A stretch of DNA of 64,000 nucleotides, taken from NCBI GenBank assembly GCA_965197475.1, contig CBDANF010000003.1, forward strand, positions 3,360,001 through 3,424,000, in the 5' to 3' direction. The notes beneath the pieces are model-generated. The model made no database searches. It saw only the letters and a program-made list of their open reading frames with translations, and had not been told where the DNA came from. Below are positions 6,639 to 47,921 of the stretch, one piece after another (position 1 is the first letter of the stretch; the number at the start of each line of letters is the position of its first letter). The position numbers and the translations under genes are program-made. Source of the DNA: Candidatus Poribacteria bacterium. GTDB lineage: Bacteria > Poribacteria > WGA-4E > WGA-3G.

Positions 6639-7427
6639 ATGGTACGATCAATAATGTTTTCCTTCTTAGCCATACTAATGTTAATCACAGTCAGTAGTCT
6701 TATGGCAGGACTTGAAGACGATCTTGTCGTCTACTTCACGTTTGACGTTGTTGAAGACAAAACGATTCATGATAGTTCTCCTAATGGATTAGATGCAAAC
6801 ATCGTTGCTAATGCTGAAATTGTCACAGGCAAAAATGGCAATGCGATCAAGATCACCGCTAAAGGCGCGGATTGTGTGAACGTTCCCGCTCACGAAAAAC
6901 TGAAAATCAGCGGTGAAATTACCATGGCCTCCTGGATCTATCGAGAAGCGTGGAATAGTGATGGACAGTGGTTTGATAAAAACTGCCATAACGGAGGTGA
7001 GCATACCTCCTACGGTATGGGTGCTTTTGAAGGTGGCAAGAATATGAATGTGATGTTAGGAAGTGGTAATGCCCGTCCCAGATTGGACAAACCGCACTCG
7101 CTAAAAGCACAAACGTGGCACTATGTCGTCGGAACCTTCAATGGTGAAACGATGAAAGTCTATGTTGATGGTGAATTAGCACTTGAACATGCCGAGGCGT
7201 TTAATTTTACCGGCACTAACGATCAAGACCTGCGGATCGGATGCGCTAAGGACCGTGCAAACTACGGGTTCAATAACGGTATGATTGACGATGCCGCAAT
7301 ATGGAGTCGCGCACTCAGCGAAGATGAAATCAACGAGTCAATGGGCGGTGGTCTTCTCGCTGTTACACCGAAAAATAAAGCCGCGACAACCTGGGGCAAT
7401 ATTAAGCAAAGAACTATTGCCTACTAA
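6639..7427 (+). CDS. Secreted LamG-like jellyroll protein with C-terminal TWG motif
   Basis: RBS AGGAGG, signal peptide, motifs ITMASWI, WHYVVGTF and GMIDDAAIWSRALS; ends AVTPKNKAATTWGNIKQRTIAY. Confidence 0.9.
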   Translation: MVRSIMFSFLAILMLITVSSLMAGLEDDLVVYFTFDVVEDKTIHDSSPNGLDANIVANAEIVTGKNGNAIKITAKGADCVNVPAHEKLKISGEITMASWIYREAWNSDGQWFDKNCHNGGEHTSYGMGAFEGGKNMNVMLGSGNARPRLDKPHSLKAQTWHYVVGTFNGETMKVYVDGELALEHAEAFNFTGTNDQDLRIGCAKDRANYGFNNGMIDDAAIWSRALSEDEINESMGGGLLAVTPKNKAATTWGNIKQRTIAY

Positions 7428-17690: not shown

Positions 17691-18470
17691 CTACCACGTA
17701 TCGCGTACACTCACACCTTCATCCGATAGATAGGTTTTGATGCTTTCAATCGTGAATTCGCCATAGTGGGTGATAGAAGCGACAATCGCCGCATCGGCAT
17801 TGCTTTCGACAAAAACATCACGTAGATGTTGCGGATTTCCCGCACCTCCAGAAGCAATTACAGGGACTGGTACCAAATCCGCGATAGCACCCGTTAATGC
17901 CAATTCATACCCTGCCTTAGTGCCATCCGCATCAATACTATTAACTACAATTTCACCCGCGCCCAAGTCAACACCACGGGCTGACCATTCCAATGCATCC
18001 CAACCGACCGGTTTCCGTCCACCATCAATATAGATTTCATATCCGCTTGGAATCTGTTCACTTTTGGCGACCTTTTTTACCTGCATACTCAATACGACAC
18101 ACTGACTGCCGAACGCTCGCGCCCCCTCAGAAATAATATCAGGGTTGCGCACTGCACCGGAATCTATACTGACCTTTTCTGCGCCAGCAAGTAGGACGCG
18201 CCGCATATCCTCAAGCGTGCGCAATCCACCGCCGACAGAAAACGGAATGAAGATCTCTGATGCGACAGCTGAAACGACATCAATCATGATATCGCGCCGT
18301 TCATTGCTTGCCGTGATGTCGTAAAAAACGAGTTCGTCAGCACCACCTTCGTAATAAAATCGCGCCATTTCCACTGGATCGCCAACATCAACATTGCCTT
18401 CAAAAGCGATGCCTTTGGTAACTTTTCCTGCACGTACGTCTAAACATGGTATTATTCGTTTTGTTAGCAT
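17691..18470 (-). CDS. hisF: Imidazole glycerol phosphate synthase cyclase subunit
   Basis: [34 protein letters not shown]. Confidence 0.97.
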
Positions 18471-18554
18471 ATTTCCTTTATCTAAATTCTACTGTAAGAG
18501 CAAGTCCTTCGAAAAGTGTAAAATCTATAAGTTAGGTGGTACTCTCAAAATAAT

Positions 18555-19640
18555 TCATGGAGACGCATACTTTTCATTTTCGATGGATGTCTCAACACCA
18601 TATAACGCTTTTATATTTCCCCACTGCATGGGCAACTTTCCCTGCGGAGACACAGGCAAAGGTCCCTCTATCCAATCCGGATAATAGTCAAAACTCGGTT
18701 CCCGTGTCAATCGCCTGAGTCTACGTGTCGCAATCTCATACTTGTAGATGTCATGATCCGGGTCCTTTTCGGGAACATCTGTCCGTTTTGCTGAGAAAAG
18801 AATAGTGCGCCCGTTGTCCATCCAACTCAACCCGCCACCTGCCCACTCTCCACCGATCTTCTCATCAATATCAATTTCCTTTTTCCTACCGGTTTTAGAC
18901 AGAATAACGAATCGGTTGACAGGGTGTTCCCACTGTCCTATTGATTCAATAAAGAGAATCTGTTTTCCATCTGTTGACCAACGTGGGTAGAACCTGAAAA
19001 CGAATCCATCTTCTCCATCCGGATCTGGCACGAATGGTCGCTGGTTCTGTCCATCCGTGGACATGATCCAGACGGTTTTATGACTGATCCCTTTACCGCT
19101 TGGGACAAACTTTCCATAGACAATCTCTTCGCCGTTCGGGGACCAATCAGGACTGTATGAACCTGAGCCTTTTTTACCTTTAGCATCCGTTAACTGTTTT
19201 ACCTCTCGACTTTCCAAATCCATCACATAAATTTCCCGATGTCCACTTCTGTTGCTCTTAAATGCCAAATATCTTCCGTCTGGTGACCATGCAGAAGCTC
19301 CGTTTATATCGCCTTCAACGCTGTGGGTGAGCTGCTGTTGGTTAGTGCCGTCTGCGTTCATGATAAAAAGTTGATACTTTTGTGTGTCCTTCTCAAGGTT
19401 CCTATCAAAAGCGATACGCGTTCCATCCGGTGACCACCGCGGTCTGAGCTCCCAAAACTGATTGTCTGTTAACCTACGTCTGCCACTGCCATCATCGTTC
19501 ATGACGTAGATACTGCCGTACGCGTTATAGGCGATTTTGGCATTGGCAACGTAAGGAACAAACAACAAGAGGAGACAACAAGATATTAAAATTTGTGTAA
19601 CGTGTAGGATTAAAAGTTTCTTAAAGTTAGCAAGTTTCAT
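18555..19640 (-). CDS. Secreted TolB-like (PD40) beta-propeller with TWG-type motif (cassette 1)
   Basis: Signal peptide ending ANA-KI; repeats PRWSPDG, AWSPDG and PDWSPNG; PVSPQGKLPMQWGNIK near the C-terminus; AGGAG RBS before ATG 19640. Confidence 0.9.
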   Translation of the reverse strand: MKLANFKKLLILHVTQILISCCLLLLFVPYVANAKIAYNAYGSIYVMNDDGSGRRRLTDNQFWELRPRWSPDGTRIAFDRNLEKDTQKYQLFIMNADGTNQQQLTHSVEGDINGASAWSPDGRYLAFKSNRSGHREIYVMDLESREVKQLTDAKGKKGSGSYSPDWSPNGEEIVYGKFVPSGKGISHKTVWIMSTDGQNQRPFVPDPDGEDGFVFRFYPRWSTDGKQILFIESIGQWEHPVNRFVILSKTGRKKEIDIDEKIGGEWAGGGLSWMDNGRTILFSAKRTDVPEKDPDHDIYKYEIATRRLRRLTREPSFDYYPDWIEGPLPVSPQGKLPMQWGNIKALYGVETSIENEKYASP

Positions 19641-19660
19641 CACTTTTCTCCTATGATTAG

Positions 19661-19691
19661 GGCGGACGCAAGATATACATCCGCGCCCGCC
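19661..19691 (-). promoter_or_regulatory. Intergenic GC-rich hairpin between the cassette-1 genes
   Basis: On the minus strand GGCGGGCGCGGA-TGTATA-TCTTGCGTCCGCC, immediately before the RBS of the TolB-like gene; no U-tract. Confidence 0.6.
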
Positions 19692-19737
19692 ATTAAGAAC
19701 GCAGTAGTGGTAGACATCCGCATTCAGTTTGAAGGGG

Positions 19738-20367
19738 TTACTGCCCATCCCAATTCCAATCGTCTATGCCCAGAGGCTGGTGGACAAGTTCAATAACCAG
19801 TTCGTCATCTACCTCCCATATATCTATCTCTCTAATCCCATCACCATTAAGATCCTTCTTTGCTGTTAAGGTAGACTCTGCAGTAAGCGTGTATCTGCCC
19901 GCATGTTTAGTACCCAGATTGTATTCCTTAAGATGCTCGTCGTCCACCCACCAGTAGCCAAGATCATCGGGATTATTTGCCCAATACGAACCTAAAAAGC
20001 CGTGGTGGCTCCAAACATCGTCATCCGCATAACTAAGAGGTCCTTCAATCCTGCTGACGAAGTCAACGTAGAATCGAAGATCGTTAATCTGATCCGGCCA
20101 GTCAGGGAGACCTCCCGAATAATTATTGATGTATGCTGAATGAACGCTGTGAGCTATTGGGTATTCATACCCCGTCCATACTACAACGCGTCCGTATACA
20201 AAAGTTAGGATCTGATGTTTTCCGCCGAATCCCTCAACGCGCTCTGATTCTGACCATGGATGTGCAATCTCACCATCGTCCGTATAGACGTGCGCGTGAA
20301 GATGCGTTGAAACAAAACAGGTCAATCCTATTAGCCCGATGAGGGCTATCATTGCTAAATTTTTCAC
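19738..20367 (-). CDS. Secreted hypothetical beta-rich protein (cassette 1)
   Basis: AAGGAG RBS, GTG start, signal peptide, acidic/aromatic composition; no family recognised. Confidence 0.85.
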   Translation of the reverse strand: MKNLAMIALIGLIGLTCFVSTHLHAHVYTDDGEIAHPWSESERVEGFGGKHQILTFVYGRVVVWTGYEYPIAHSVHSAYINNYSGGLPDWPDQINDLRFYVDFVSRIEGPLSYADDDVWSHHGFLGSYWANNPDDLGYWWVDDEHLKEYNLGTKHAGRYTLTAESTLTAKKDLNGDGIREIDIWEVDDELVIELVHQPLGIDDWNWDGQ

Positions 20368-20396
20368 AATTTTCTCCTTATTGTTAGTTATACCAA

Positions 20397-20824
20397 GGAG
20401 ACGTATCTATTTTAGCACGTCTCCGTTTTTGTGTAAATAAAATAAACAAATTGTAAGTAGTTGCACCTATTCTGTTTTGATGTGCGTTGTGCGCGAATAG
20501 AATAGGGATAACAAGCATTGCGGTGTCCGCGATGCAACAACAAAAGCCCGCGGCGAAACACTTCATAGAAACGAAGTGCACGTGCGGGCGCGAAAATACT
20601 GCAGCTTCTAACGTCTGCAATACGACCTTGTCCACTGAAATAATTAACAAATGTGAAGTGGGGGTAGTAACTAACAGTTAAAACGAAACCACCAGGTATT
20701 GTGTCAGAACAACCCTGTTCAGATAGCAAACATCTGAAATGTTCATTTTTGGAGGGTATTGGTTAAATAATGATGCAAGAATTAGCGGGATACCCTCTGA
20801 ACCGCGCTGCATCATATTTCAGTT
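20397..20824 (-). ncRNA. Candidate large structured leader RNA or ncRNA with pseudoknot
   Basis: Begins right after a consensus promoter; about nine stems plus an 8-bp pseudoknot, found by manual pairing (see findings). Confidence 0.6.
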
Positions 20825-20830
20825 GCGGTA

Positions 20831-20859
20831 ATGATAACACTTATAACGAGAGTTGTCAA
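20831..20859 (-). promoter_or_regulatory. sigma70-type promoter
   Basis: TTGACA-17 bp-TATCAT on the minus strand. Confidence 0.75.
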
Positions 20860-20889
20860 TGAAAAAATCAGACTGATTTTCATTGACTT

Positions 20890-21686
20890 ATATGCCTAAA
20901 ACTTGTATCCTCATTGAAAACAACTCATTTCTACTCACAGGAGGATACCATGAAAGCGTGTCCAAGATGTCAACATATTCACTTCGTCAAAAACGGGTTC
21001 GTCAACGCAAAACAACGTTATAAATGTCCAAGTTGCCACTATCAATTCACACGCAAAACACCACGAGGTAAACCCCAGACACATAAAACCCTCGCTCTGC
21101 TCTTGGACTGCCACGGTATTTCAATGAATGCTATCTCAAAACTCTTCAACATTCATGTAACAACTGTTCTCAAATGGGGACGCTCCTATGCGAAAAAACA
21201 CGCCCCGAAACGGACATTTTCACCCGGATCCACCGTAGTTTTGGAGCTTGATGAAATGTGGCATTATATCGGAAAGAAGAAAAACAAACTTTGGATATGG
21301 AAAGCACTTGACAGGAACACAGGATACCTCATAGATTGGCAATGCGGCGGACGCAACACAGAAACCCTTGAAAAACTGACGCATCGCCTCAAAGCCTTGA
21401 ATGTCAAAATGTCCTACACCGACAAGTGGCAGGTGGACGAATCCATCCTACCTGCTTCAAAACATGTTCAAACGAAGGCGGAGACACATCGCATTGAACG
21501 CAACAATTGCTTGATGCGGCACTGGTTCGGCCGGTTCAAACGTCCGTCCATTATTGTTTCAAAAAGTGTGGAGATGGTGAACCTAACGATTGCCTTGTTC
21601 GCACGATTTCGTGTTAATGGAGACGTGTTTGACATTTTAAAACTTGGCGGAATGGAAACCATGAATATCATTAGTTAGGCAATACC
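20890..21686 (+). mobile_element. IS1-family insertion sequence
   Basis: Right end reads GGTATTGCCTAA on the minus strand (IS1-type GGT end). Degenerate left end TATGCCTAA at ~20891. Contains a transposase. Confidence 0.85.
20950..21678 (+). CDS. IS1-family transposase (single-ORF InsAB)
   Basis: Zn finger CPRC...YKCPSC, HTH, DDE motifs LDEMW, TDKW and IERNN; GGAGG RBS. Confidence 0.93.
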   Translation: MKACPRCQHIHFVKNGFVNAKQRYKCPSCHYQFTRKTPRGKPQTHKTLALLLDCHGISMNAISKLFNIHVTTVLKWGRSYAKKHAPKRTFSPGSTVVLELDEMWHYIGKKKNKLWIWKALDRNTGYLIDWQCGGRNTETLEKLTHRLKALNVKMSYTDKWQVDESILPASKHVQTKAETHRIERNNCLMRHWFGRFKRPSIIVSKSVEMVNLTIALFARFRVNGDVFDILKLGGMETMNIIS

Positions 21687-21687
21687 C

Positions 21688-23510
21688 TCGAAAAATTTAC
21701 TGATTGTTCCCTTATTGTTAGTCTTGATTCTGTTTTCTCTAAACGTATGTGCTCAGGACTATATGAAATGGGGACTTCCTGAAAATGCTACGCTTCGTCT
21801 TGGGAAAGGGCAAATTTACGACCTAAAGCATTCACCAAATGGCGACCTGATTGCAGTAGCAAGTTCCATCGGAGTTTGGTTGTATGACGCTCATTCTGGT
21901 AAAGAAATTAGGTTGCTGCAAAAACACAGCTATCCGGTTAATTCATTGGCGTTCTCATCAAATAGCAAAATGTTAGCAAGTGGTGGTTCAGATGGTATCC
22001 ATCTGTGGGAACCTCACACTGGGCAGCATCTATTTACGCTCACAGAATCAGCGGCTAACAATTTGGTTTTTTTCCTGATGGACGAACGCTGGTAAGTACA
22101 AGTGATAAAATAATTAGGTTTTGGGATGTGGCGAACAGGACTATTTCTAAAACCCTTACAGGACATACATGGCAAATTTTGTCTCTCGCGGTTTCACCAA
22201 ATGGAAAAACTATAGTTAGTGGTTCTCATGTTAATGATGAACTGAAACAAAGTAATGGACTGCGTTGGTGGGATGTTGAAACTGGAAGAATGTTGTTTTT
22301 TTCAACAGCCATGGATTCAGCGGTTACTGCTCTAGCGTTTTCCCCTAATGGAAAAATACTAGCTTGTGCAAATAGTTTCAGCAGGTCGGAGAATCGAAAC
22401 ATCTATTTATTTGATGGTGTTAGTGGTGAAATATTAAGGACGCTGCCCGAACTGCACGGTAAAACCATAAGCTTAGAATTTTCTCCTGATGGCAAAACGC
22501 TAGCCAGTACTGGATGGGATGGTACAATCCGCCTTTGGGATCCACACACTGGGCACCATATCCATACGTTTAGAGGATACGTGGGGTGGTTATCGTTTTC
22601 GCCTGATGGTAAAACCCTTGTGAGTGGTGGAGATGGGGTAATTCGGTTTTGGGATACATCAACGAAACAACAGCGTTTTAGTGTTTCTGGTCACTGGAAT
22701 AGTATAGGTGCGTTGACGTTTTCATCCGATAGTAAAACGCTAATCAGCGGTGGTTATGAAACTCCCATAATTCATAAATGGGATGTATCTACGGGCCAAC
22801 TCATGTCTACCTTAACACTAACGTCTGCTGATGCAGAACAAATTTGGGCTTTTAATGCGAAACGCGGTTTATGTGCTAGTACAAGTAGGGAACAATCTTC
22901 CTATAAAATTTGTATCCGTGACATTGATACCGGTCAACTTCACGCTTCAATGGACTATCAGTTTCTCTTACCACTAATTTCAGAATTTTCACCATTAACA
23001 TTTTCACACAATGGAGAGACAATAATTGTTTTGAACGAACAAGAAATTGGTAGTAAAAAAGTGTTGGAATTTGAATTTTGGGATTCATGGCTTCATTCCG
23101 TTAAATTTAAGTTTATGCCACATAAAAATGAAATTTTTAAATATTCTACACATACTGACGTTACGGCTCTCACATCTTCACCAGATAACACGCTTCTCGC
23201 TACTGCTGTAGGAGGTCGGGTTGCCCTTTGGAAGTTTGGCACCGACGAACTTATTCTGTCCTATCCTGAATTTGATCGCCTTAGTTGCTACGCGTTGGCA
23301 TTTTCTAATGATAGCAAAATTCTTGCTATCGGAGACTCTCTGGATATCTGTCTAATTGAAGTGGATACCGGAAATCTTATAACAACCTTGTCTAAACATA
23401 ACAACTGGGTTAAAGCGTTGGCATTTTCCGCTGATGGCAAAATGCTTGCAAGTGGAAGTAAAGACGGCACAATTTTGATTTGGGACTTAGATAAAATTAT
23501 GAAGAATTAG
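21688..23510 (+). pseudogene. Secreted WD40-repeat protein; start apparently removed by IS1, frameshift at ~22070
   Basis: Signal-like SKNLLIVPLLLVLILF abuts the IS end; WGLPENATLRLGKG; many FSPDG..LAS..D..I..WD repeats. The two ORFs join through LVF(S)PDGRTLVSTSDKIIRFWD if one base is added at the T-run. Confidence 0.82.
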
Positions 23511-23513
23511 TTT

Positions 23514-23699
23514 TTAGTTTGGACTCAGATTTTTCTTGCATCTTCTTGCGATAAGGAGAAAAATCAGTATATTTCGCCCCTGCTTTATACGCTGTTCCCG
23601 GCGTTTTTTCAAAAAATCCATCAGAGAATCCACATCACCGAACAACACGGCAAGTCGTTCCTTCGCTTGTTGACATTCTTTCAAAATTTCATCATTCAT
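23514..23699 (-). CDS. Small hypothetical protein (possible TA-associated remnant)
   Basis: 61-aa ORF with GAGG RBS and a charged helical N-terminal part. Confidence 0.5.
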   Translation of the reverse strand: MNDEILKECQQAKERLAVLFGDVDSLMDFLKKRREQRIKQGRNILIFLLIARRCKKNLSPN

Positions 23700-23897
23700 G
23701 AGAGTTCCTCAATTATCGCTTTTGGAGATACGACGTAAAGTGGGAATTAACCTGTCTCACGGTAGGTTGACTGATGACTCAAACTAATATTTAGTATAAA
23801 AGGAAATGTACTCAAGAATTACATTATAGAATTTGGAGGATTCAGCCTCTGAATATCCTAGTTGTAAAATACAGTTGTTACAAGCATAGAAACCTGA

Positions 23898-24332
23898 TTA
23901 AGTGCTCCTCAGGTGTGAAGGGAAAATTTCATGGTTAGAATCCCACCATAATAGAAAAGCCTCTGTTTCCGATCGAATTGCCCAAAGGCGTTTTCTGCCA
24001 CTTATACGAAATGAAACCAATTCCTCTTGATCATCATGTTTTAGTTCTCGTAGCCGTTCTTGGGCAGGTTTTATGATGTCACTGACAGGTATCATGTGGT
24101 GACTTCTACCTAATATTTGACCCCATGTCATAGTTTCAAAGTTACGCATCTTGCCCCATATATTCCTGAGGAAATCAGGACAAGATATATTATTCCAACC
24201 CCATTGACCTTCATCGTCAATTTTTGAAACTTTCCACACAAGTTGCTTATTTTGAGTGCTCGGGGTACGAGCAGATGTGGCTTTCTTTCTTCCTTTCGGG
24301 TCACGGCCTCGACGAGGATTTTTCCTACTCAT
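23898..24332 (-). CDS. Putative toxin of a Panacea-type TA pair (RelE-like nuclease candidate)
   Basis: Motifs MTW..I, LVSFRISGRKRLWAIR and LLWWDSNHEIFPS; ATG overlaps the antitoxin stop. Confidence 0.7.
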   Translation of the reverse strand: MSRKNPRRGRDPKGRKKATSARTPSTQNKQLVWKVSKIDDEGQWGWNNISCPDFLRNIWGKMRNFETMTWGQILGRSHHMIPVSDIIKPAQERLRELKHDDQEELVSFRISGRKRLWAIRSETEAFLLWWDSNHEIFPSHLRST

Positions 24333-24959
24333 CAAGATCTTCCTCAACTGGCAAGGAACTATAATAATCTGCCATCGCGTCTAATGGTATAACCTTATCT
24401 CCACGCTCCAGTGGGGGCAGACCCTCTCTTGCCAGGATCCAAGGGTCTTCAAGGTGTGTAAGTTCAATTAGCCATTGGGCGGATTTATCCCCATAGTAAT
24501 CAAGCACCGCATCAACGGTATTTGCTGTTCCTGATCTAACAAACGCGGGTTGCCAATTTCTACGGTTTCTATTTAGTATCTTCCGCGATGATAATAAAAT
24601 AAATCTCTTACAACGGGACCATTTGCCCAAGCCTCAATGTTTTCCTCAAATAAAGGTTTCTCATCCCACACCATTGACCATGCTTGACTATAATATACCA
24701 GTTTCTGAAGTTTCATGGTACTCATTATCCCTTTTTTCTCTAAAATGTACGCGGCAACATCAAAAACACGGATTTCAGGTGTCCGAAAATTATCGTCTTG
24801 AACTTTTCTCCAGGTTACATCTTTTTCTAACTCTTGAAATTTGGTGTCTAGATCAATTTCTGAATTAAAAGTTTTTATAGACGTTTTATCGTAGGATATA
24901 TCTTTTGATAAAGTATCTTCTTCTTCAGGAGTGATACTTGTATCATTCCATTTATTCAT
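24325..24959 (-). pseudogene. Panacea/SocA (DUF4065) antitoxin with N-terminal extension; nonsense codon plus frameshift
   Basis: STMKLQKLVYYSQAW, IEAWANGPVV and L.ELTHLEDPW motifs; in-frame TAA at 24573-24575 and a 1-bp frameshift near 24520. Confidence 0.85.
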
Positions 24960-25653
24960 TCAGTTTCCCCTTTCAATTCCGAACGATAGATTTCAGAGAT
25001 AAATTTTGCTGCCTTTTCCTTCAATTCAAGTATGGAAGTTTCAGATATTTTCGTCTTGAATTGGGTTAAATCGCGAATCTCGAAATGAAAATTTAATTTA
25101 AAAGTATAACCTTCTCATTTTTGACGAAATGAAAATTTAATTTAAAAATAACCTTCTCATTTTTGACTTCAATCGTAAAATTAAGGATTCTGCCATCCAA
25201 TTCCAAATTACGTGTATATTGTTGTCCGATTAATAATGCACCAAACTTCTCAATTTTACCAAGATCTTTTGGACGAATAATACTTTCGATATCTTCACTA
25301 ATTTTGTTGTCAATGAAAACAAAATTGACACCGAATCCTGAAACAGGGGTATGTGGCAAATAACCTGTGAGTAACAATGCAATTTCTTCTATACGTCTAA
25401 AGTTTTCATCTTTGCTTTCTACTAGACTAATACTTAATTTATTACCTTGCAATTGAATTCTAATTTCTTTAGACGATACTCGTTGTGAAGCAAATTGTGG
25501 GTTAAAACCGTGGAGTAGTTCTGCCAGGATATCAACCTTTAATTTCTCTTTTTTCCCATCAAAAAGATATCTTCTAATCCAATTTGGATTAAATATATGT
25601 GCGTTCCAACCGCCTACGATAACTAACGCGCAAGAAGAATGGTCTAATTTCAT
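24956..25653 (-). pseudogene. Hypothetical protein (TIGR04255-like), frameshifted by a tandem duplication
   Basis: LVIVGGWNAHIFNPNW and LPHTPVSGFGVNF. A 42/44-bp tandem duplication at ~25082-25167 shifts the frame; the restored tail EIRDLTQ...KGETE ends in an ATGA overlap with the next gene. Confidence 0.7.
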
Positions 25654-26272
25654 AAGCAATACCTTTCAAGAGTTTCGCGGGAGTGTTTATACAACATCGG
25701 GCGTAGCAGATGTCTAATACGGGAATCGTATACCGATTGATTGGTCCAGAAGTGCTATCATAGTAAACCTGCAATTACATAGACACCATTGACAGCGCGC
25801 TCATAAAGCACCTGCTGGAAATGTTCACATATTTCAATTTCACTACAAGTAATAAATTACTTGTTTTAATTAACGTTAACATAATTATAACATATTTTAA
25901 CTCAAAGATCAACAACTTTTGTTGATATAGGTGAACTCGGGACCGAGAGCAAAACAAGAAATCAACTATCATTTTAATAAATAAACAGATTTTAAACAAT
26001 CATGTTGTTCCTTCTAATGACATGCTCTTCGGTTTTGTGCTATTTTTTCTATAGGTAAATAATAGCATCTTTTGCCGAAAAATGCAATATTTTTAGAAGC
26101 ACTAAGCAGCGTTGATTTGACAGCAGGTCCCCAAAATCCTCGGAATTTGTGTAATCTGCCTAATCCCATGGTTCAGACAAAAAGCAATAATAATGTTCAG
26201 ACAAATTGATTTGCAATCAAAACAAGCGTGTGCTAAAATAAATTTAATCGTAGCGTTGCATATAGAGGAGAT

Positions 26273-29200
26273 ATGATGAATTACGCAGAACTGCCACTCC
26301 CACAACGTCAGAGAGAAGAAATTCATCGGATTTTATCAGACGTATCCGATAGAGACGGAGGCGTGGACAGCGAATCTATATTGCGAGGCATACAAGAACT
26401 CGCCACAGAAGATACAGACACCCGATCCTATTTTGCAGATATCGTTATTCCGTTGTTAGAAACCTGCCTTGACTCTCCCAATCCCGAAGCAGCATTAACT
26501 AATTTTTCCCGTTTTACAGTCGTAGCATTTAATCGGAAATGGGTCTATCAACTGTTGCGGGATGCACCGTTTCTGATGCAAACGGTGATGCTCATTTTTG
26601 GTGCGTCCTCATATCTGTCAGAAATACTGATTCGTAATCCCATCTATTTTTACGACATCATTGATGCCAATGTGATGGACGCGTTGAAAACACCTGACAG
26701 CATGTATAACGAACTTTCTACGGCAATCGGCAGATATCGAGACGTTGATCAGAAGCTTCATATCATTCGGCGATATAAACAGCGCGAAAGTCTTCGTATA
26801 GCACTGCGTGACTTGCTTCATGCTGCAGATGTTGAGACAACGACATTGGAGATGACCAATTTGGCAGAAGCTGCACTGCAGCACTGCTATGAAATCGGGC
26901 GTGACCAGATGATGAAATCGAAGTTCGGTACTCCGCTCAATGAAGATGGCACAGCACCCTGTCGCTTTGCTGTTATCGGAATGGGGAAACTTGGCGGCTT
27001 TGAACTCAACTTTAGTTCTGATATTGACTTGATCTTTGTTTATTCAGACGAAGGACAAACCGATGAAGGTGTTGATAATAGCGAATACTATTCCCGGTTG
27101 TGTGAGTTTATAATTAAAGCGATGAGTGAGGTAACGGTAGAAGGATATGTGTTTCGTGTGGATATCCGTTTGCGGCCGGAAAGCAGCGCAGGGGTCATCA
27201 TCCGTTCTATGGAAAGCTACGAAAGTTATTATGAAGGGTGGGGTGATTTATGGGAACGTCAGGCATTAATTAAAGCACGTCCTGTCGCGGGGGATATGGC
27301 GTTTGGCGATGAGTTTATCCGTATGATACAGCCGTTTGTATATCAACGCTACTTAGACGGTGTAACGCTCAATGAAATTAAGGTAGATATTCACAATACT
27401 AAAATGCGTATAGAGGAACGACTCGTAGGTGAAAGGGCAGACCTTGAAAAGCATGTGAAACTCGGTCCGGGTGCTATTCGGGATATTGAGTTTACCGTCC
27501 AGTGCCTTCAGATGATTCATGGTGGAAAGCGAAAGTCACTCTGTTCCCAGAATACTTTGGAGACTATCGCGGCGTTGAAGGCTAACGAACAACTGGATGC
27601 ACAGGACGCAGACGCGCTATCGGAAGCTTATCGGTATTTAAGAAGGGTTGAAAACTGCATTCAAATTGAGGCGGACCAACAACGTTACGCAGTTCCAGTC
27701 AAAGAAGAAGAGGAAATCCAACTTGCCAGACGGTTAGGTTACCGTGCTGCTGCGCTTGAAACATTTCGCCAAGATTACCGAACCCACAAAACGCGTGTCC
27801 GTGAAATTTTTGAGAAAGTCATGAACGTCCATGAACCGGATCGGTTAGATGTACCAGTTCTGCTTAGCCAAGATAACCCCGAAGAGATTCAGATGCAATT
27901 GGGCAAGTTCGGTTTTGAGAATGCGCGCGAAGCACATCGTTTACTAAGGCAACTTGCTAACGGCACGGATGGACAGCAGTTCTCACCTGCAGTTAGACGA
28001 ACTTTTTTCAAACTCGCCCCGGTCCTTCTGAAATGTTTAAGTGAATCCCCCGATCCGGACATGGCACTTCGTTACTTTGATGCGTTTGCCGCTAAGGTCG
28101 GCGCGCGGAGCAGCTACTACACCATGTTCATGGAAAGACAAGGGGCACTTGAAGCACTCACAAGTGTTTGTGGTTCCAGCCTTTACTTGGCGGATTTACT
28201 GATTGCAAGTCCAGAACTGTTTGACCTATTGACAGTGCCGACTTTTACCGAATACCCTAAAACACTTGCCAAAAAACAAGAAGAGGTTTTACAAATTCTT
28301 GCGAATACACCTGATGCTCACTTACTGAGAGCACTCAGGCGTTACAAGAACGATGAGATTTGGCGTATTGCCTTACGAAATATCCTCGGCAACGCTGACC
28401 TGCCTACGACGACCGAAGAACTATCCGATTTAGCCGAAGCAATACTGCAAGGTATTTATCCGCAAATTGACGCGCAGCTGCGTGAAGAACACGGCACTCC
28501 GCTGATCAATGACCGAACACCTGTTACGTTCGCCATCATAGCAATGGGCAAGTTTGGCGGTCGAGAACTCAACTTCAGCTCAGATTTAGATGTCATGTAT
28601 GTCTATACAGCAGATGGCGAAACAACACAAGGTATGCCAAATTCGGAATACTTCTCAATCCTCGGTTTGGAGTTGGTAAACCAGCTTGGCGGGAATCACG
28701 ACATGAGTATTTATGAACTTGATCTACGGCTCCGTCCTTACGGCACGGGTGGCGCGATTGCATTGCCGCTCAAAGGGTATCAGAATTACTACGATCATAC
28801 CGCAGAAATTTGGGAACGTCAAGCACTCACACGCGCGCGCGTCGTAGCAGGAGATGTGGAGGGCGTAGGAAACCAATTTATGGAGATGGCTCATGCCTTT
28901 AGTTATCGGCAGCCACTTACTTCTGAAGATATTGCTGAAATTGTGCGGACACGCCAACGAAAGGAAGCACAAGCCACCCGAAAAACTAAACCAAGACGTA
29001 GACGAAGCGGAAAAGTGCAAAAACCCACTGCTAACGTGAAGTCGGGATATGGCGGACTTGTTGACATTGAATTCGCTGTGCAAACCCTTCAACTTATCCA
29101 CGGCACGGATACGACTTCTGTCCGGGTGCCAAATACGCTCCTCGCAATTGACAGATTGCACGCTATTGGTGTGCTTACAGAAGAACAGCGCACCGGATTA

Positions 29201-29425
29201 TCAGAAGCGTATCAATATCTTAGGTGCGTCGAAAACGCATTGCGGATTGTGCATGATCGCGCATTAGATGCGTTGCCTACAAACCGATCAGAATTGACAC
29301 AATTAGCACGGCGGCTTGGATACACGGAAACTGATAATACATCTATCGTAGAGGCGTTTTTGCAGGATTACGGAAAATGGACTGAAAAGACTCGTTCATT
29401 ATTCAATGAGATTCTTGTTAATTGA
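26273..29425 (+). CDS. glnE: Bifunctional glutamine synthetase adenylyltransferase/adenylyl-removing enzyme
   Basis: Two nucleotidyltransferase domains, GMGKLGGFELNFSSDIDL and AMGKFGGRELNFSSDLDV; RLRP; WERQAL. Confidence 0.96.
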   Translation: MMNYAELPLPQRQREEIHRILSDVSDRDGGVDSESILRGIQELATEDTDTRSYFADIVIPLLETCLDSPNPEAALTNFSRFTVVAFNRKWVYQLLRDAPFLMQTVMLIFGASSYLSEILIRNPIYFYDIIDANVMDALKTPDSMYNELSTAIGRYRDVDQKLHIIRRYKQRESLRIALRDLLHAADVETTTLEMTNLAEAALQHCYEIGRDQMMKSKFGTPLNEDGTAPCRFAVIGMGKLGGFELNFSSDIDLIFVYSDEGQTDEGVDNSEYYSRLCEFIIKAMSEVTVEGYVFRVDIRLRPESSAGVIIRSMESYESYYEGWGDLWERQALIKARPVAGDMAFGDEFIRMIQPFVYQRYLDGVTLNEIKVDIHNTKMRIEERLVGERADLEKHVKLGPGAIRDIEFTVQCLQMIHGGKRKSLCSQNTLETIAALKANEQLDAQDADALSEAYRYLRRVENCIQIEADQQRYAVPVKEEEEIQLARRLGYRAAALETFRQDYRTHKTRVREIFEKVMNVHEPDRLDVPVLLSQDNPEEIQMQLGKFGFENAREAHRLLRQLANGTDGQQFSPAVRRTFFKLAPVLLKCLSESPDPDMALRYFDAFAAKVGARSSYYTMFMERQGALEALTSVCGSSLYLADLLIASPELFDLLTVPTFTEYPKTLAKKQEEVLQILANTPDAHLLRALRRYKNDEIWRIALRNILGNADLPTTTEELSDLAEAILQGIYPQIDAQLREEHGTPLINDRTPVTFAIIAMGKFGGRELNFSSDLDVMYVYTADGETTQGMPNSEYFSILGLELVNQLGGNHDMSIYELDLRLRPYGTGGAIALPLKGYQNYYDHTAEIWERQALTRARVVAGDVEGVGNQFMEMAHAFSYRQPLTSEDIAEIVRTRQRKEAQATRKTKPRRRRSGKVQKPTANVKSGYGGLVDIEFAVQTLQLIHGTDTTSVRVPNTLLAIDRLHAIGVLTEEQRTGLSEAYQYLRCVENALRIVHDRALDALPTNRSELTQLARRLGYTETDNTSIVEAFLQDYGKWTEKTRSLFNEILVN

Positions 29426-29558
29426 TCAGAAGATTTCTAATCAAGTTAGTTGGTATAAAAAGTTATAGGTGGCAACTTGGGTTATTAAATATGCCCATTT
29501 TGTGCAGCTTTTTCTCAATATTTTGTAGAAAACCCTGTCAGTACAGTCCTTTCCAGAT

Positions 29559-29574
29559 TGGCACGGAATTTGCG
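29559..29574 (+). promoter_or_regulatory. sigma54 (-24/-12) promoter
   Basis: TGGCACGGAATTTGCG matches TGGCACG-N4-TTGC, ~120 bp before the ATG at 29696. Confidence 0.75.
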
Positions 29575-29695
29575 TGACGTAGCCAGGGTGTCCCAATCCT
29601 TTATTCAACGTGTAGAAGGTCTACCGAAAAGGATAGGGAACCTGATAAATAACCGATATGCTACAAAAGCATGTCACCTTAAAAGGAGCTATAAA

Positions 29696-30601
29696 ATGCG
29701 GATATTAAGATCAATCGGCATTGCAGCGGCGATGCTATGTTCTCTATTGCTAATTGGGATAAATAGCAGCGATGCTTATGAAATTGTGGAATTCCCGTCT
29801 GATACCGAAGTTCAGACGTATGGTGATTACACATACCACATGGCGCATCTAAAAACCGACGTGCCATATCTTTGGATAGAATGGTATGTTGACGATAAGC
29901 TCGTAGATATAGACCGGGGCGATGGTGTCAAAACTAAATCCTATTTCTCCCCCTACGGTAAAATACCCGGTGCCGTTCAAGGGGAAAAACATACGATAGA
30001 GGCATTTGCTGCTTTCACGTATGTGGAGGATCTGGAGAATGTGGATTGGGACAGGATATGGGACTGGGTGTATGCTTGGAGGATATTGATTTTCATGGAT
30101 TCCGATTCCTACAAGGTGAGATCCTTTGAATCCGTCCCCAGTTTTGCTAATGGCATCCTACAGACATCCTGGGAAAAACCCCGTGTCACCGGTGTCGCTG
30201 GCTACGCGTATGTCACACGCCACTATTTCAACGGAACCGCTTTCGTTATGGAGGCTTATGTCTATGCCTACAACGGCACCGAGCACGACTTCGCGGTCGC
30301 ATCCTGGTTCCGACAGCAGAAGTACACCGCAGACGGGGGCGTGGAGTGGGGAAAACGAGATCCGCCTTTTAACACACCCATTGTTTCCGTTCCGCTTCCG
30401 GCCGGACAATCGTATTCTGATTCCGCCAATTCTGGGGTGATCGAATATCCATTCGAAGGACCGATCGGACGTAATGAAACGCTTTATTTTGATGCACATA
30501 CGCACCTCCAAGTGCATGGTGTAGTACAGGGTAAGACTATCGTAGACGACTGGGAAGCGGATACAACTGTTCTGGAGTTTACGGAAGAACACAATCCATA
30601 A
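29696..30601 (+). CDS. Secreted hypothetical beta-rich protein (cassette 2)
   Basis: AAGGAG RBS, signal peptide MRILRSIGIAAAMLCSLLLIGINSSDA; no family recognised. Confidence 0.85.
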   Translation: MRILRSIGIAAAMLCSLLLIGINSSDAYEIVEFPSDTEVQTYGDYTYHMAHLKTDVPYLWIEWYVDDKLVDIDRGDGVKTKSYFSPYGKIPGAVQGEKHTIEAFAAFTYVEDLENVDWDRIWDWVYAWRILIFMDSDSYKVRSFESVPSFANGILQTSWEKPRVTGVAGYAYVTRHYFNGTAFVMEAYVYAYNGTEHDFAVASWFRQQKYTADGGVEWGKRDPPFNTPIVSVPLPAGQSYSDSANSGVIEYPFEGPIGRNETLYFDAHTHLQVHGVVQGKTIVDDWEADTTVLEFTEEHNP

Positions 30602-30609
30602 ATCCACTA

Positions 30610-30642
30610 TAACGGCAGGGGACACGTTCCCCTGCCATTTCT
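30610..30642 (+). repeat. 33-bp hairpin direct repeat, copy 1
   Basis: TAACGGCAGGGGACACGTTCCCCTGCCATTTCT; identical copy at 31710-31742. Confidence 0.9.
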
Positions 30643-30658
30643 CACAAGGAGAATAGCC

Positions 30659-31695
30659 ATGCGTTTACACAAAGTCGTTTTGCTCAGTCTCTTGCTACTA
30701 CTTTTATCAACTGGAGCGTCTGCCAAAATCGTTTTTGGCTCCGTACGCGACGGTGTGGAGGGTATCTACGTTATGGACGATGACGGTAGCAACCAGACGC
30801 TTATCACCGAAGACAAAGAGTTGCAGCCATACCCCACTTCCTGGTCACCAGACGGTAAACAGATTCTATTTAAGAGACGCGCGCGGATAAACGGAAATGG
30901 TGTTCTTTTCTTGATGAATGCGGACGGCACGAATGTTCGGCAACTCACAGAAGACGATGATAGTTATATCAATACGGGTAGATTTTCACCGGATGGTAAA
31001 TCTATCGTTTTTCGAAGGTCAGTTCGGATAAACAACACGTCCAAATATAGCATCGTCGTGCTAAACATAAAGACAGGGAAGATGAAACAAATATCAGATA
31101 GCTGGGGTATCCAATGCGATTGGTCGCCAGATGGCAAGCATATTGTATTTGCACATCCACGCGGGGGCAATGGTAGCACGATTTGGATTATGGGTTCGGA
31201 TGGTCAAAACCCGCGCGAACTTCTCCCGCACCGCGTTGGTGGAGAATTCACGAATTACCGATCGAGACCGCGCTGGTCACCTAACGGTAAACAGATTGTT
31301 TTTCAACAAATAGAGTATAAATACGTGTTCATACCGAATGAGGGGAACTTTCTTTTCTACAAGGCGTTTCAGTATATGATTTGTGATCAGAACGGAGAGA
31401 ACGTTAGAAAACTACGAATACCGAGTAACTGGAAAGGGTATGGTATGGATTGGATGGATGACGGTAAATCAATCGTTTTCAGTGCGTATGTCAGCATACC
31501 TGTGAACAAACTGCTACCGCGCGGGTTTGTGTCTCCACCGAGCAATATCTATAAGTATCATATCCAGACGCACGAGATCACACGGCTAACAGACATCCGG
31601 GCACAGATGGGACACTGGATTGGATCAGCGATGATGCACATGCTGTGACCGCAGTCGGCAAAAAAAAAGTAACGTGGGGAACGTTGAAAAAATAA
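30659..31695 (+). CDS. Secreted TolB-like (PD40) beta-propeller (cassette 2); 1-bp frameshift near the 3' end
   Basis: Signal peptide ASA-KI and WSPDGK repeats. The alternative frame after ~31594 reads HPGTDGTLDWISDDAHAVTAVGKKKVTWGTLKK-stop (31695). Confidence 0.88.
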
Positions 31696-31709
31696 AGCCC
31701 TAACCATTG

Positions 31710-31742
31710 TAACGGCAGGGGACACGTTCCCCTGCCATTTCT
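31710..31742 (+). repeat. 33-bp hairpin direct repeat, copy 2 (possible terminator)
   Basis: Identical to 30610-30642; followed here by TTATTTT. Confidence 0.9.
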
Positions 31743-31756
31743 TTATTTTATAAGGA

Positions 31757-31878
31757 CAGGACGGACGCATTCCCCCTTGATAAGGGGGGTTAGGGGGGTT
31801 AAAAGTCCTTATTTGGGTGTTTTAAACCCCCTAATCCCCCTTATCAGTGGGACTTTAAGAAAAAATGCGTCCGTCCTG
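31757..31878. mobile_element. MITE-like element (122 bp)
   Basis: Perfect 15-bp terminal inverted repeats CAGGACGGACGCATT/AATGCGTCCGTCCTG enclosing CCCCCTT..AAGGGGG-type palindromes; no ORF. Confidence 0.8.
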
Positions 31879-31954
31879 ATAATTATTATGTATCGGGGAC
31901 GGGATAGGTTTTGAAGCAGTCAAAGCCGCGAGTTACTATGCAGCGGGTGAAACA

Positions 31955-32183
31955 GGTCACAGCAGACCACGAAACGGGTGGATTGCGGGTGCAAAAAAGC
32001 AACGGACAAGGAAAAGTACCTGAAATCTCTTGGTCTACAAGCGGACATACCGTCAGCAATGTGCCACTATACGGTTGGGGCAAGAATGCTGAACATGTTG
32101 AAGGAGTCATGAACAATACGGATCTGATCAAAGTAGTGTTTGGCAACGGTGACTTGAGTGATGTCCAACTCACCCTATTTTAG
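31955..32183 (+). pseudogene. Alkaline phosphatase C-terminal remnant
   Basis: VTADHETGGL metal-binding motif and WSTSGHT..NVPLYGWG...MNNTDL; N-terminal portion absent. Confidence 0.8.
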
Positions 32184-32827
32184 ATCCGCCTATGAGTAAG
32201 AGTATGTTGTCTAACATAGCACGCTGAGAAATCCCTCGCGTGTTGAGCTGCATTTGTGGACGACATAATACCAGACATCACTGCAACCCCGGATGCGCCC
32301 GCCTCCAAACATTCACTAACATGTAACGGTGTAATCCCACCAAGCGCGAACACAGGCAACTTGACCTGCTCTACCAACTTTTGGAGATTTACTATTCCAA
32401 CCGACGGTCCATATCCCGGTTTGCTTTTTGTCGGATAGATTGGACTATAGGTTACAAAATCTGCGCCTTCAGCCTCCCTTTTTTTAGCACTATCAACACC
32501 GTGTATTGAGCAGCCAACCAGAAAATCGTCGCCTGATTGTGCTTTCACTTCCTCAACAGATTTATCAATGTCGGGCAAATGAACGCCTATAGCACCTACA
32601 TCAACCGCAACTTGCACATTGGTATTGATAAATAGACTTGCGTTGTTTGTTCTACACAACTTTGAAATGGGTTGCGCTAACTCGTACAAAGCAATATCAT
32701 CTAAATCCTTTTCACGTAACTGGATTGCTTTGACACCGGCATCTAAAATTTCAGAGATAACTGTGAGTAAAGGCTTGGGTGCACACTGAACTCTGTTGGT
32801 GATAACGTAAAGTTTAAAATCGATCAT
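32180..32827 (-). CDS. thiE: Thiamine-phosphate synthase (ThiE/TenI family)
   Basis: IQLREK, GVHL, PIYPTKSK, PVFALGGI. Confidence 0.85.
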   Translation of the reverse strand: MIDFKLYVITNRVQCAPKPLLTVISEILDAGVKAIQLREKDLDDIALYELAQPISKLCRTNNASLFINTNVQVAVDVGAIGVHLPDIDKSVEEVKAQSGDDFLVGCSIHGVDSAKKREAEGADFVTYSPIYPTKSKPGYGPSVGIVNLQKLVEQVKLPVFALGGITPLHVSECLEAGASGVAVMSGIMSSTNAAQHARDFSACYVRQHTLTHRRI

Positions 32828-46036: not shown

Positions 46037-47921
46037 ATGCGATGCAGCTTAATCATATTTCTCTGTTTCTGTGTCGTTTCTCCTCTACTGGCTGAGACTT
46101 TCACAGATGTAAGTCAAGTGGCAGGAGTTCATCAGCGAGAAACTCCAATAGATCCGAATTCCGGGGCTTGGATGGGCCCCGGAACCGCCGCTGTAGATTA
46201 CGATAACGATGGCTGCTGGCTTGACATCTTCGTTGTTGGAGATGGTAGTTTACCCAATGCGCTTTACCATAATAACGGTGATGGAACATTTATGGATATA
46301 GCAGCCGAAGCAGGGGTGGCAAACACGCCAAACGGACGCGGGTGCGTCTGGTTTGACTATAACAATGATGGTTGGCGTGATCTTTATGTAACCTGTGCGG
46401 GACCAAACTTTCTCTTCATGAACAATGGGGATAGCACCTTCACAGATGTAAGTGAAGAGGCAGGGGGTCACTGATGCCCAGCACGGTACCAGTGCCTCGG
46501 TTGCTGATTATGACCACGATGGATGGCTTGATATCTATGTTGCGAACTGGGGACGCCCGGTCTCCCTTTTAGTTTTTGATCCTGCTCCCAGAATAAACGT
46601 GCTATATCGGAACAAAGGAGATGGCACTTTTGAAGAGGTAACAGACTCGGCAGGAGTCGCAGATGATGGAATTGCTTGGGGTGCAATCTTTTTTGATTAC
46701 GATGGCGATACATGGGCAGATTTGTTCGTAGCAAACGACCACGGTCCTGATAAACTCTATCGCAACAGAGGTGATGGCACCTTCACAGATGTTTCGGAGC
46801 AATCTGGCATTGTTACGCTCATCAGAGGAAAACCAACTGGTGCGATGGGACTTTGCGTCGGAGACTATGACAACGATACTGACCTTGATCTTTTCGTTAC
46901 AAACTACGATGAAGATCTGCTCTGGCGAAATAACGGTGATGGCACCTTTACTAACGTTGCTGAAGATGTTGGCGTTGCGAACGTAGGTGTAGGTTGGTAT
47001 GCCAGTTTCATTGACTTTGATAACGATGGATATCGCGACCTTTATGTTGTCAACGGTGATGTAGATAATTCGCAAAAGACAAACCGTAACCGTCTCTATC
47101 ATAATACTAAAGATGGAAAGTTTGTAGATCGTTCCGATGCGTTCAATACAACTGTTGATACCGTCGCACGTGGTGCAACTGCTGGAGATTTTGATAACGA
47201 TGGCGATGTCGATTTCTTTGTCGTCAACAACACTGGCAATACACTTCTTCTAAACGATCTTGATCCTCCATGGCGGTCCAATTATCCTGCCCTTCGGCGC
47301 AACTTAGCTAAGAATCAACGTCTCAAAATTCGTTTGCATGGAACAAAAAGCAACCGCGATGGCATCGGCACACGGGTTGCAGTGAAAGTAAGGGACTTCG
47401 TTCAAACGCAAGAATTAATCTGCGGCACCGGCTTTCTCGGTAGCGACAGTTTAGAACTTGAATTTGGACTGGCAGGTGCTAATAGAATCGATTCAATTAC
47501 GCTGACATGGCCATCTGGAATTGTCGAAACTTATGAACACCTATACGCATCAGACCTGTTCATTTTTACTGAAGGAGAAATGCAAAAGTTTGTAGTCGCG
47601 GTTGAACCAACAGGAAAACAGGCGACAACGTGGGGAAAGATCAAAACTGCAGAGGTGTTTCAAAACTATCCTAACCCATTTAACCCTGAAACGTGGATAC
47701 CGTATAATCTTTTTGAATCCAGTGATGTGAAATTTTCAATTTTTTCTCAGAGTGGAGATTTGGTACGAGAATTTAAAATTGGACAACAATCGCGTGGTGA
47801 AAAGAAATTATATTGGGATGGCAAAAACGCAAATGGCGAAACTGTTGCCAGTGGAATCTATTTCTATCAGTTTAAGGCTGGCAATACCCAAAGTGTGCGA
47901 AAAATGTGGTTAATGAAATAG
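46037..47921 (+). CDS. CRTAC1-family protein with TWG motif and FlgD-Ig/T9SS-A-like tail; frameshift at ~46465
   Basis: FG-GAP repeats, UnbV domain, AVEPTGKQATTWGKIK then QNYPNPFNPETWIPY...WDGKN..GE.VASGIYFY. Removing one G from the G5 run joins the two ORFs. Confidence 0.88.

Follow-up and report, generated by a model that had tools for sequence, protein, structure and literature searches.

A recurrent two-gene cassette of an exported first protein and a PD40 propeller in Candidatus Poribacteria

The window analysed here is a stretch of 64,000 nucleotides (nt) from a Candidatus Poribacteria bacterium (GenBank assembly GCA_965197475.1, contig CBDANF010000003.1, positions 3,360,001 to 3,424,000 of the forward strand). 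Positions given without a contig are those of the window. It contains two loci, A on the minus strand and B on the plus strand, each composed of a first gene (A1 or B1), a spacer with a hairpin and a gene for a PD40 propeller (A2 or B2). An earlier note on this DNA, made from its letters alone, had described both loci as copies of one layout, in which a signal-peptide protein is followed by a GC-rich stem-loop at an AGGAG-type ribosome-binding site and by the propeller. We confirm this layout. This work describes the parts of the cassette and their order, its conservation across genomes, its duplication as a unit and the different rates at which its two genes evolve. The parts of the two loci are the following.

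20409..20437, minus strand: promoter-like site of locus A, TTTACA-17-TAAAAT with TG before the -10 (promoter scan, 10/12 matches)
20368..20408, minus strand: short 5' leader of A1, weakly folded, in which UCUCCUU can pair with the AAGGAGA ribosome-binding site
19738..20367, minus strand: A1, 209 amino acids (aa), GTG start, signal peptide, one eight-strand beta-sandwich (open reading frame and model)
19661..19725, minus strand: two spacer stem-loops of locus A, at ~19725..19697 and ~19691..19661 (RNAfold)
18555..19640, minus strand: A2, 361 aa, exported PD40 propeller (Pfam), with VSPQGKLPMQWGNIK at ~18609..18653 and then 18 residues
29579..29678, plus strand: structured leader RNA motif of B1 (model R2; fold z, covariation)
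29696..30601, plus strand: B1, 301 aa, signal peptide, two beta-sandwich domains (open reading frame and model), member of a multi-copy family
30610..30642, plus strand: hairpin of locus B, copy 1, with its stem-loop at 30614..30636 (model R1, 55.4 bits)
30659..31695, plus strand: B2, exported PD40 propeller, in frame to ~31590; the open reading frame as called ends at 31648
31710..31742, plus strand: hairpin of locus B, copy 2, terminator-like with a T-rich run after it (terminator scan; model R1, 59.4 bits)

Recurrence of the gene pair and rates of its two genes

The genome (5.7 Mb, three contigs) has four such cassettes. Besides A and B, a paralogue search located two more:

contig 3, 2077211-2079156: cassette C
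contig 2, 673409-675341: cassette D

The first proteins B1, C1 and D1 form one family (B1 and C1 are 36% identical, E-value (E) 2e-41; B1 matches D1 in the N-terminal domain, at E 1e-12). Cassettes B and C duplicate one block: their nucleotide identity is 74% over the propeller gene and both hairpins and 77% over the leader and the signal peptide. Between them, divergence is much greater in the body of the first gene (protein identity 36%) than in the propeller (64%).

Outside this genome, the B1 protein is matched in 29/36 genomes of the genus and in 0/24 genomes from three other families of the order. In a draw across the phylum, the B1 profile found 25/32 genomes of the genus and 3/44 of the sister genus; elsewhere it gave only weak, partial matches. 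First-gene matches reach 14-16 in one genome. The A1 family is small, with 11 homologues found, and it is rarer than B1 (relatives in 10/39 other genomes of the genus).

The gene order is kept wherever the pair was followed. In 19/19 loci in other genomes, taken as one best match per genome, the B1-family gene stands directly before a co-oriented propeller gene with a so-called TWG-type tail (PD40-TWG gene), and an A2-type propeller adjoins the A1-family gene in all 13 loci fetched. Because A2-type propellers accompany A1 and B2-type propellers accompany B1, each first-gene family travels with its own propeller subtype. This order persists although the first genes diverge down to ~33-43% identity.

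The mean similarity in bits per residue is lower for the first gene than for the propeller in B-type (0.37 vs 0.97) and in A-type cassettes (0.68 vs 1.22), and the propeller is the more conserved of the two in 99-100% of pairwise comparisons. First genes thus evolve about twice as fast as propellers. The pairwise similarities of first and second genes are also correlated (r 0.63 and 0.84). Together, the synteny and the pairwise rates support the idea, first raised from the window alone, that this is a two-gene module which recurs, is specific to the lineage and pairs a variable first protein with a conserved propeller.

The proteins and their tails

The first proteins had been said to be of no recognisable family, and neither A1 nor B1 has a match in Pfam or NCBIfam at E up to 1. 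Both proteins of each pair carry a signal peptide, which is N-terminal in A1 and B1. The model of A1 is a single eight-strand beta-sandwich (predicted local distance difference test (pLDDT) 78.9) and that of B1 a pair of beta-sandwich domains (pLDDT 84.5); this confidence suffices for naming the predicted fold class. No Foldseek match was found for A1 at E up to 0.001. Its best VIA match is the rim domain of MspA (Z 8.3), and further structural neighbours are the second domain of RbmA (Z 7.0, root-mean-square deviation 3.1, 103 aligned), CsgC and CsgH (Z 6.5-6.6) and a fimbrial subunit (Z 6.0). For B1, Foldseek retrieved arrestin, RbmA and VPS26-like two-sandwich proteins (E ~2e-6), with template modelling (TM) scores of only 0.2-0.33. 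According to the tool's own note, a Z under 8 or a TM of 0.2-0.33 lies in the range where likeness may be just a common arrangement. As these neighbours are generic and their scores low, no family can be assigned to A1 or B1. The ESM Atlas gave no usable match for B1; its matches for A1 were all clusters without a name, none above 0.91.

A C-terminal pattern that A1 and B1 were proposed to share found no statistical support. The best BLASTP match between them (E 0.63) gives no detectable homology, and hhalign returned a probability of 2.4% (E 0.02) for an alignment that is colinear over 128 columns and sets A1 residues 44-197 onto the second domain of B1. Searched against 1.84 billion proteins, the A1 profile found 16 clusters only, none of which has the length of 240-330 aa typical of the B1 family. 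These comparisons neither establish nor rule out that A1 and B1 have a common origin.

The second proteins are clear paralogues, as had been noted (A2 and B2 are 34% identical, E 1e-45). Their PD40 (PF07676) repeats score over the Pfam gathering score of 20.9, with 84.5 bits for A2 (E 3.8e-24) and 59.3 bits for B2 (E 3.1e-16), and the closest solved relatives of A2 by sequence are TolB propellers (E 1.7e-26). The expected start of the mature part was found as well: in A2 and B2 the signal peptide ends in ..A and is followed by KI, and A34, K35 and I36 are invariant across 13 A2-type sequences. A role in a defence system was considered and rejected, as PADLOC gave only a weak, PD40-type match to PDC-M58B (E 6.6e-6 and 5.1e-5) in which no stretch passes alone.

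The tail is defined here as the motif K-x(2-7)-W-G-x-[LIVM]-K located among the final 60 residues of a protein with a signal peptide. Both A2 (MQWGNIK) and an out-of-frame tail of B2 (VTWGTLKK) contain it, so the motif claimed for the ends of the propellers is present; the A2 motif, ..KLPMQWGNIK (VSPQGKLPMQWGNIK), is however not terminal, as 18 residues lie beyond it, and the B2 tail has to be read across a frame break. In the assembly B2 is broken near 31590-31599, and its tail ..KKKVTWGTLKK (DWISDDAHAVTAVGKKKVTWGTLKK) lies in another frame, 31567..31695. A contig from a DNA run that holds 89% of the stretch's sampled words has two letters fewer at 31595 and two substitutions, which restore the reading of the tail. 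A difference in assembly or between strains may therefore account for the break. As in B2, frame breaks divide four more PD40 paralogues into two neighbouring open reading frames (ORFs) each:

contig 2, 278581-279582: split PD40 paralogue
contig 2, 322385-323403: split PD40 paralogue
contig 2, 674239-675341: split PD40 paralogue
contig 3, 1717204-1718096: split PD40 paralogue

In this three-contig assembly, the PD40 splits may be indel errors rather than decay.

The tail is not special to these propellers but a genome-wide mark on about 70 unrelated proteins. Of 18757 crude ORFs in the genome 74 carry it, against 11 motif matches in the remaining parts of all proteins. The tailed proteins include LamG-like proteins, propellers and large repeat proteins (tails read by eye). 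Two more, of other families, are encoded in the window at 6639-7427 and 45258-46022, and one of them is LamG-like, with ..IDDAAIWSRALSEDEI.. (by eye).

The motif is also found next to type IX-type sorting domains (TIGR04183), of which the genome has 51, all over the cut-off. The motif stands directly before the sorting domain in 2/51 cases, one of which lies in the window (47667..47906), and a TLGQIK variant stands there in three more. A2, B2 and the B2 tail themselves gave no TIGR04183 match at E up to 1. A SprA-like open frame of 2194 aa is present, whose five pieces sum to ~180 bits, under the cut-off of 200. In the literature abstracts, type IX secretion is described as confined to Bacteroidota or to the Fibrobacteres-Chlorobi-Bacteroidetes (FCB) group. 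After the stop codon of 16/51 sorting-domain genes (counted by eye) we observed common DNA that reads in-frame as ..YQMTIG.LEG.CLLASQ, for instance on contig 3 near 3207232 and 688192, which is another conserved gene-end element.

Leader RNAs, intercistronic hairpins and neighbouring elements

Both loci had been credited with a strong promoter and a structured leader, and each locus bears this out in part. Locus A has the promoter-like site, with its -10 inside an inverted repeat, and the same arrangement precedes the first gene in 7/13 A-type loci, the window's included (rows read by eye). The A1 leader, conserved in sequence in related A-type loci, folds with -8.7 kcal/mol (z -1.99, 11/200 shuffles as good), which is weak alone. 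At locus B the promoter scan found no sigma-70-like site before B1, and the structured leader is clear (z -4.5): over 100 nt an outer helix encloses a hairpin, and a second hairpin lies 15-25 nt before the ribosome-binding site.

A model of this B1 leader (R2), built from four copies, has 35 matches in 16/40 genomes of the genus and no match in 88 genomes of 18 other genera in the phylum draw. Across 30 copies, 12 of 25 pairs changed on both sides, compared with 2.3 in shuffles (0/500 as high), and 92.8% of the cells pair, compared with 32-45% when the partners are slid. The alignment was fitted to the model, which favours structure; the shuffle and slid-partner controls agree. A search of Rfam 15 with window 18000-32200 at E up to 1 found nothing on the leader or the intercistronic hairpins. 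It gave four weak matches (three microRNA (miRNA) models and one small nucleolar RNA model), none near the gathering score.

A PD40 gene lies downstream of the leader in 28 of the 30 copies. The leader itself precedes B1-family genes in 17 copies, a distant A1-like family in 6, a third family or unlabelled genes in 3 and a PD40 gene directly in 1; for 3 copies no suitable downstream ORF was found. The A1-like family is tied to A1 transitively, with 16-24 bits to the A1 profile and E 1e-10 to 1e-26 to A1-profile matches. The strongest sign that the cassette types are forms of a single system is that one leader precedes three first-gene families.

In other genomes, most leader copies share a conserved stretch of 75 nt upstream (GGGGCCCC palindrome, CTCAAC, ..TGGTTT), so the full RNA or control region may be ~175 nt long; the stretch is absent from the window's B and C copies. 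A TGGCAC-N5-TTGC site at 29559..29573 ends 6 nt before the B1 leader motif and occurs in only 2/30 leader copies; the same 17-nt string lies ~45 nt upstream of the leader in a related locus (L104). Read by eye, it resembles the sigma-54 -24/-12 consensus and may be a promoter of that type. A contig from an RNA library starts inside this site, at 29564.

Between the two genes, a GC-rich hairpin just before an AGGAG-type ribosome-binding site is present at both loci as the note had described, and the intercistronic stem-loop is conserved. The 97-nt spacer of locus A is filled by its two stem-loops, the second of which is GC-rich and lies 9 nt before AGGAG (spacer z -4.4, 0/200 shuffles as good). 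At locus B, a GC-rich stem-loop of 9 bp starts 12 nt past the B1 stop and ends 9 nt before AAGGAG, within a 33-nt element that lies 8 nt after the stop and 3 nt before AAGGAG. Cassette spacers in general measure 57-140 nt, their stem-loops end 3-12 nt before the AGGAG site, and no promoter-like site was found in them. The folding of 34 cassette spacers has a median z of -4.3, with 29/34 below -2; two of the five others had been cut inside the hairpin.

The element of locus B is repeated. Copy 2, after B2, is identical to copy 1 over 33 nt, and the 23-nt hairpin occurs twice in the window against 0 expected. Exactly four copies of this B-type hairpin exist in the 5.7 Mb, flanking the propeller gene on both sides in B and C. 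Its covariance model has 78 matches in 24/40 genomes of the genus, one to eleven per genome. Of the copies in fetched loci, 36 in all, most (25) separate a B1-family gene from a PD40 gene, usually at 6-7 nt past the stop; 3 have PD40 genes on both sides, 5 come after a PD40 gene and 3 are elsewhere. PD40 genes adjoin 34/36. All copies run in the direction of the genes, and their spacing to the stop codon and to the ribosome-binding site is constant. The B-type hairpin is thus a cassette-specific, sequence-conserved element and not a genome-wide repeat. In a model-fitted alignment 93.9% of its cells are paired, while plain MAFFT, which misaligned stems of unequal length, predicted only 3 pairs. 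Divergent B-type cassettes and all A-type cassettes have stem-loops of unrelated sequence at the same place, which argues for a structural role of the spacer hairpin.

A terminator scan, which called a GC-rich stem directly followed by at least 5 T in 8, retained copy 2 (31714..31736) but neither copy 1 (30614..30636) nor the hairpins of locus A. The T tail of copy 1 is weaker than that of copy 2. Of the 25 intergenic copies, 15 have a run of at least four T between the stem and the ribosome-binding site (counted by eye). From its sequence, the B-type hairpin looks like gene-end punctuation of varying terminator strength.

Traces of expression come from sponge metagenome runs that contain the window sequence. 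In three RNA libraries of one study, in which DNA carry-over is possible, contigs identical to the window cover pieces of A1 (19734-20385, 3/3 runs) and the leader with the 5' end of B1 (29564-29775, 2/3 runs). The same runs have no listed contig on A2 and next to no depth over most of B1 and B2; as the data are contigs that passed a record-dropping filter, these gaps over A2 and B2 are not readable as lower propeller expression.

Repeated elements lie near cassettes A, B and D. An IS1-family insertion sequence of 938 bp (20752-21689, transposase ORF 20914..21678) lies 385 nt upstream of A1, with its borders marked by read ends in four runs. The genome has 19 IS1-family copies of at least 800 nt (9 at ≥ 99% identity, 10 at ~79-81%), and another copy on contig 2, 672425-673371, sits between a conserved promoter motif and cassette D. 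Right after cassette B lies a palindromic repeat of 141 nt (31745-31885), resembling a miniature inverted-repeat transposable element (MITE) or a repetitive extragenic palindromic (REP) sequence. It has 51 copies of at least 100 nt in the genome, very high depth in DNA and RNA-library runs, and spurious miRNA models as its only Rfam matches.

Known systems, possible roles and rival explanations

The propellers share their repeat family with TolB, and both are of the periplasmic, Sec-exported type. TolB, in the Tol-Pal system, works by docking a partner on its propeller and binds Pal and the 'TolB box' peptides of colicins. However, A2 (123.3 bits) and B2 (91.1 bits) score far from the TIGR02800 cut-off of 343.15, and they lack the N-terminal alpha/beta domain of TolB. 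Their matches lie within profile positions 161-418 only (best stretches 161-295 for A2 and 248-407 for B2, of 418 positions), and the mature proteins start at the first propeller strand, KI. Unlike TolB, they have the TWG tail, multi-copy genes and a variable exported protein as neighbour instead of Pal. Cargo of type IX secretion is similar in that some TIGR04183 domains of this genome have the TWG motif directly before them, whereas A2 and B2 end in the motif, or in the motif and a short extension, without the sorting domain of ~70-80 residues.

RbmA, a biofilm scaffold of Vibrio cholerae with two domains resembling fibronectin type III (FnIII), is comparable to B1 (E 2.2e-6), which is exported and has two beta-sandwich domains, and its second domain to A1 (Z 7.0). 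With an identity of 11-13% and a TM of 0.23-0.33, shared descent or function is unsupported. Intercistronic stem-loops that set unequal expression are known from the REP sequences in malEFG and the hairpins of the puf operon. Here too, a stable stem-loop lies between co-oriented cistrons, right after the first stop codon, but it belongs to a single operon family, keeps its sequence across species and is often repeated after the second gene. The earlier note had recognised no described system. Likewise, the cassette as such has no Pfam, NCBIfam or Rfam match, and the abstracts searched hold no account of the cassette or of the TWG tail in Poribacteria. As far as profile and family searches can tell, no described system fits it: it falls outside both TolB and type IX cargo, and its RNA elements lie outside Rfam.

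The cassette is probably a modular device of the cell envelope or the cell surface. Tentatively, and with slightly more doubt than belief, we read it as a family of modular operons, present chiefly in one genus of Candidatus Poribacteria, whose proteins cooperate, whose hairpin tunes their ratio and whose leader senses a signal. Expression would start from a 5' region that holds either a sigma-70-like promoter and a short leader able to mask the ribosome-binding site (type A) or the 100-nt structured leader (type B), with the leader RNA acting as a signal-dependent switch of the entire unit. The first gene, drawn from at least three families of fast-evolving, Sec-exported proteins (beta-sandwiches by their models in the A1 and B1 families), would be co-transcribed with the slower-evolving gene of a Sec-exported PD40 propeller with the lineage's TWG-type tail. 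As a leaky terminator, a stabiliser of the RNA end or both, the stem-loop would yield more of the variable protein than of the propeller. Both proteins would then work together in the envelope or at the surface, where the propeller may serve as the constant platform, tied by its tail to a partner or route shared with the other 70-odd TWG proteins, and the variable sandwich as the specificity subunit.

Several observations weigh against this reading. Contact between the first protein and the propeller is presumed, and the roles that the note had suggested, chaperone or anchor for the propeller and setting of the stoichiometry for the hairpin, are hypothetical; a complex prediction for A2 34-361 with A1 26-209, made from alignments, scored 0.01 against a mark of 0.32 and, without controls, has no bearing either way. 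Two of six close PD40-TWG paralogues in this genome have no first gene, so the propeller does not strictly need a partner. The 18-30 residues that follow the TWG motif in A2 and some B-type propellers are a poor fit to a signal that needs a free C-terminus. Compensatory change affects only 2/9 pairs of the B-type hairpin, no better than in shuffles (47/500), and with its sequence conserved and covariation lacking, recognition of that sequence, as DNA or RNA, is just as probable as a role of structure alone. At the 10/25 intergenic copies without a four-T run, the window's own included, there may be little or no termination. The RNA evidence, finally, consists of contigs, which show neither ends nor levels.

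The two genes could instead be independent neighbours, i.e. co-inherited secreted proteins separated by an ordinary terminator, with read-through or a separate weak promoter serving the propeller and the order left by block duplication. B and C are indeed block duplicates (74% and 77% nucleotide identity), duplication alone would lead to correlated distances, and PD40-TWG genes are found alone or in arrays too. We nevertheless hold this explanation to be somewhat unlikely: the order is kept in 32/32 loci of many species while the first gene diverges, and across three unrelated first-gene families behind one leader, which is hard to explain without selection for pairing. Very unlikely, in our view, is that the hairpins are sites of recombination or mobility and the propeller gene a movable or amplifiable cassette, integron-like or repeat-mediated, which would account for the PD40 arrays and the cassette copies. 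Such sites would explain why the propeller gene of B and of C lies between two copies of the 33-nt element, why model matches are paired ~1.1-1.2 kb apart in at least seven other places (coordinates read by eye) and why, in an element restricted to these cassettes, the sequence and not just the pairing is conserved. Yet no integrase or recombinase was seen by eye beside either locus in the ORF list of the region, where no search aimed at integrases was made, and the neighbouring IS1-family element is a separate, multi-copy one. The fixed orientation and spacing of the hairpin to the stop and the ribosome-binding site are those of an RNA signal, and in more divergent cassettes hairpins of unrelated sequence occupy this position.

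Least probable of all would be a first protein that is the substrate, inhibitor or assembly client of the propeller, such as a polymerising matrix or fibre subunit with its periplasmic handler. It is suggested by the models of A1 and B1 as immunoglobulin-like or FnIII-like sandwiches with RbmA, CsgC, CsgH and a fimbrial subunit among their neighbours, but these structural matches all lie in the common-arrangement range given above, and no polymerisation motif or usher-like gene was seen. The cooperating operon family that we tentatively favour could also be extended into a riboregulated, diversifying surface module. In it, the leader would be a sensor, riboswitch-like or bound by a protein, and several fast-evolving 'specificity' sandwiches would share a constant propeller, fixed in the envelope by a tail derived from the type IX cargo junction, so that the cell could vary what it displays to host or phages. 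We regard this extension as speculative and, on balance, unlikely.

Poribacteria are widespread, uncultured sponge symbionts whose dealings with their host and with phages are largely unknown. A cassette that is multi-copy, found mainly in one genus and made of exported parts with a fast-evolving first gene has the traits expected of a module that meets the outside world. Three of its elements are new to the libraries searched: the 100-nt leader RNA, backed by covariation; the punctuation hairpin, which is conserved in sequence and confined to one operon family; and a short tail on ~70 proteins that is also found at the junctions of type IX-type sorting domains. These domains moreover occur here in a phylum where the literature abstracts do not place type IX secretion. 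If the first protein and the propeller do bind each other, the pair would be a natural system of a scaffold and a variable binder.

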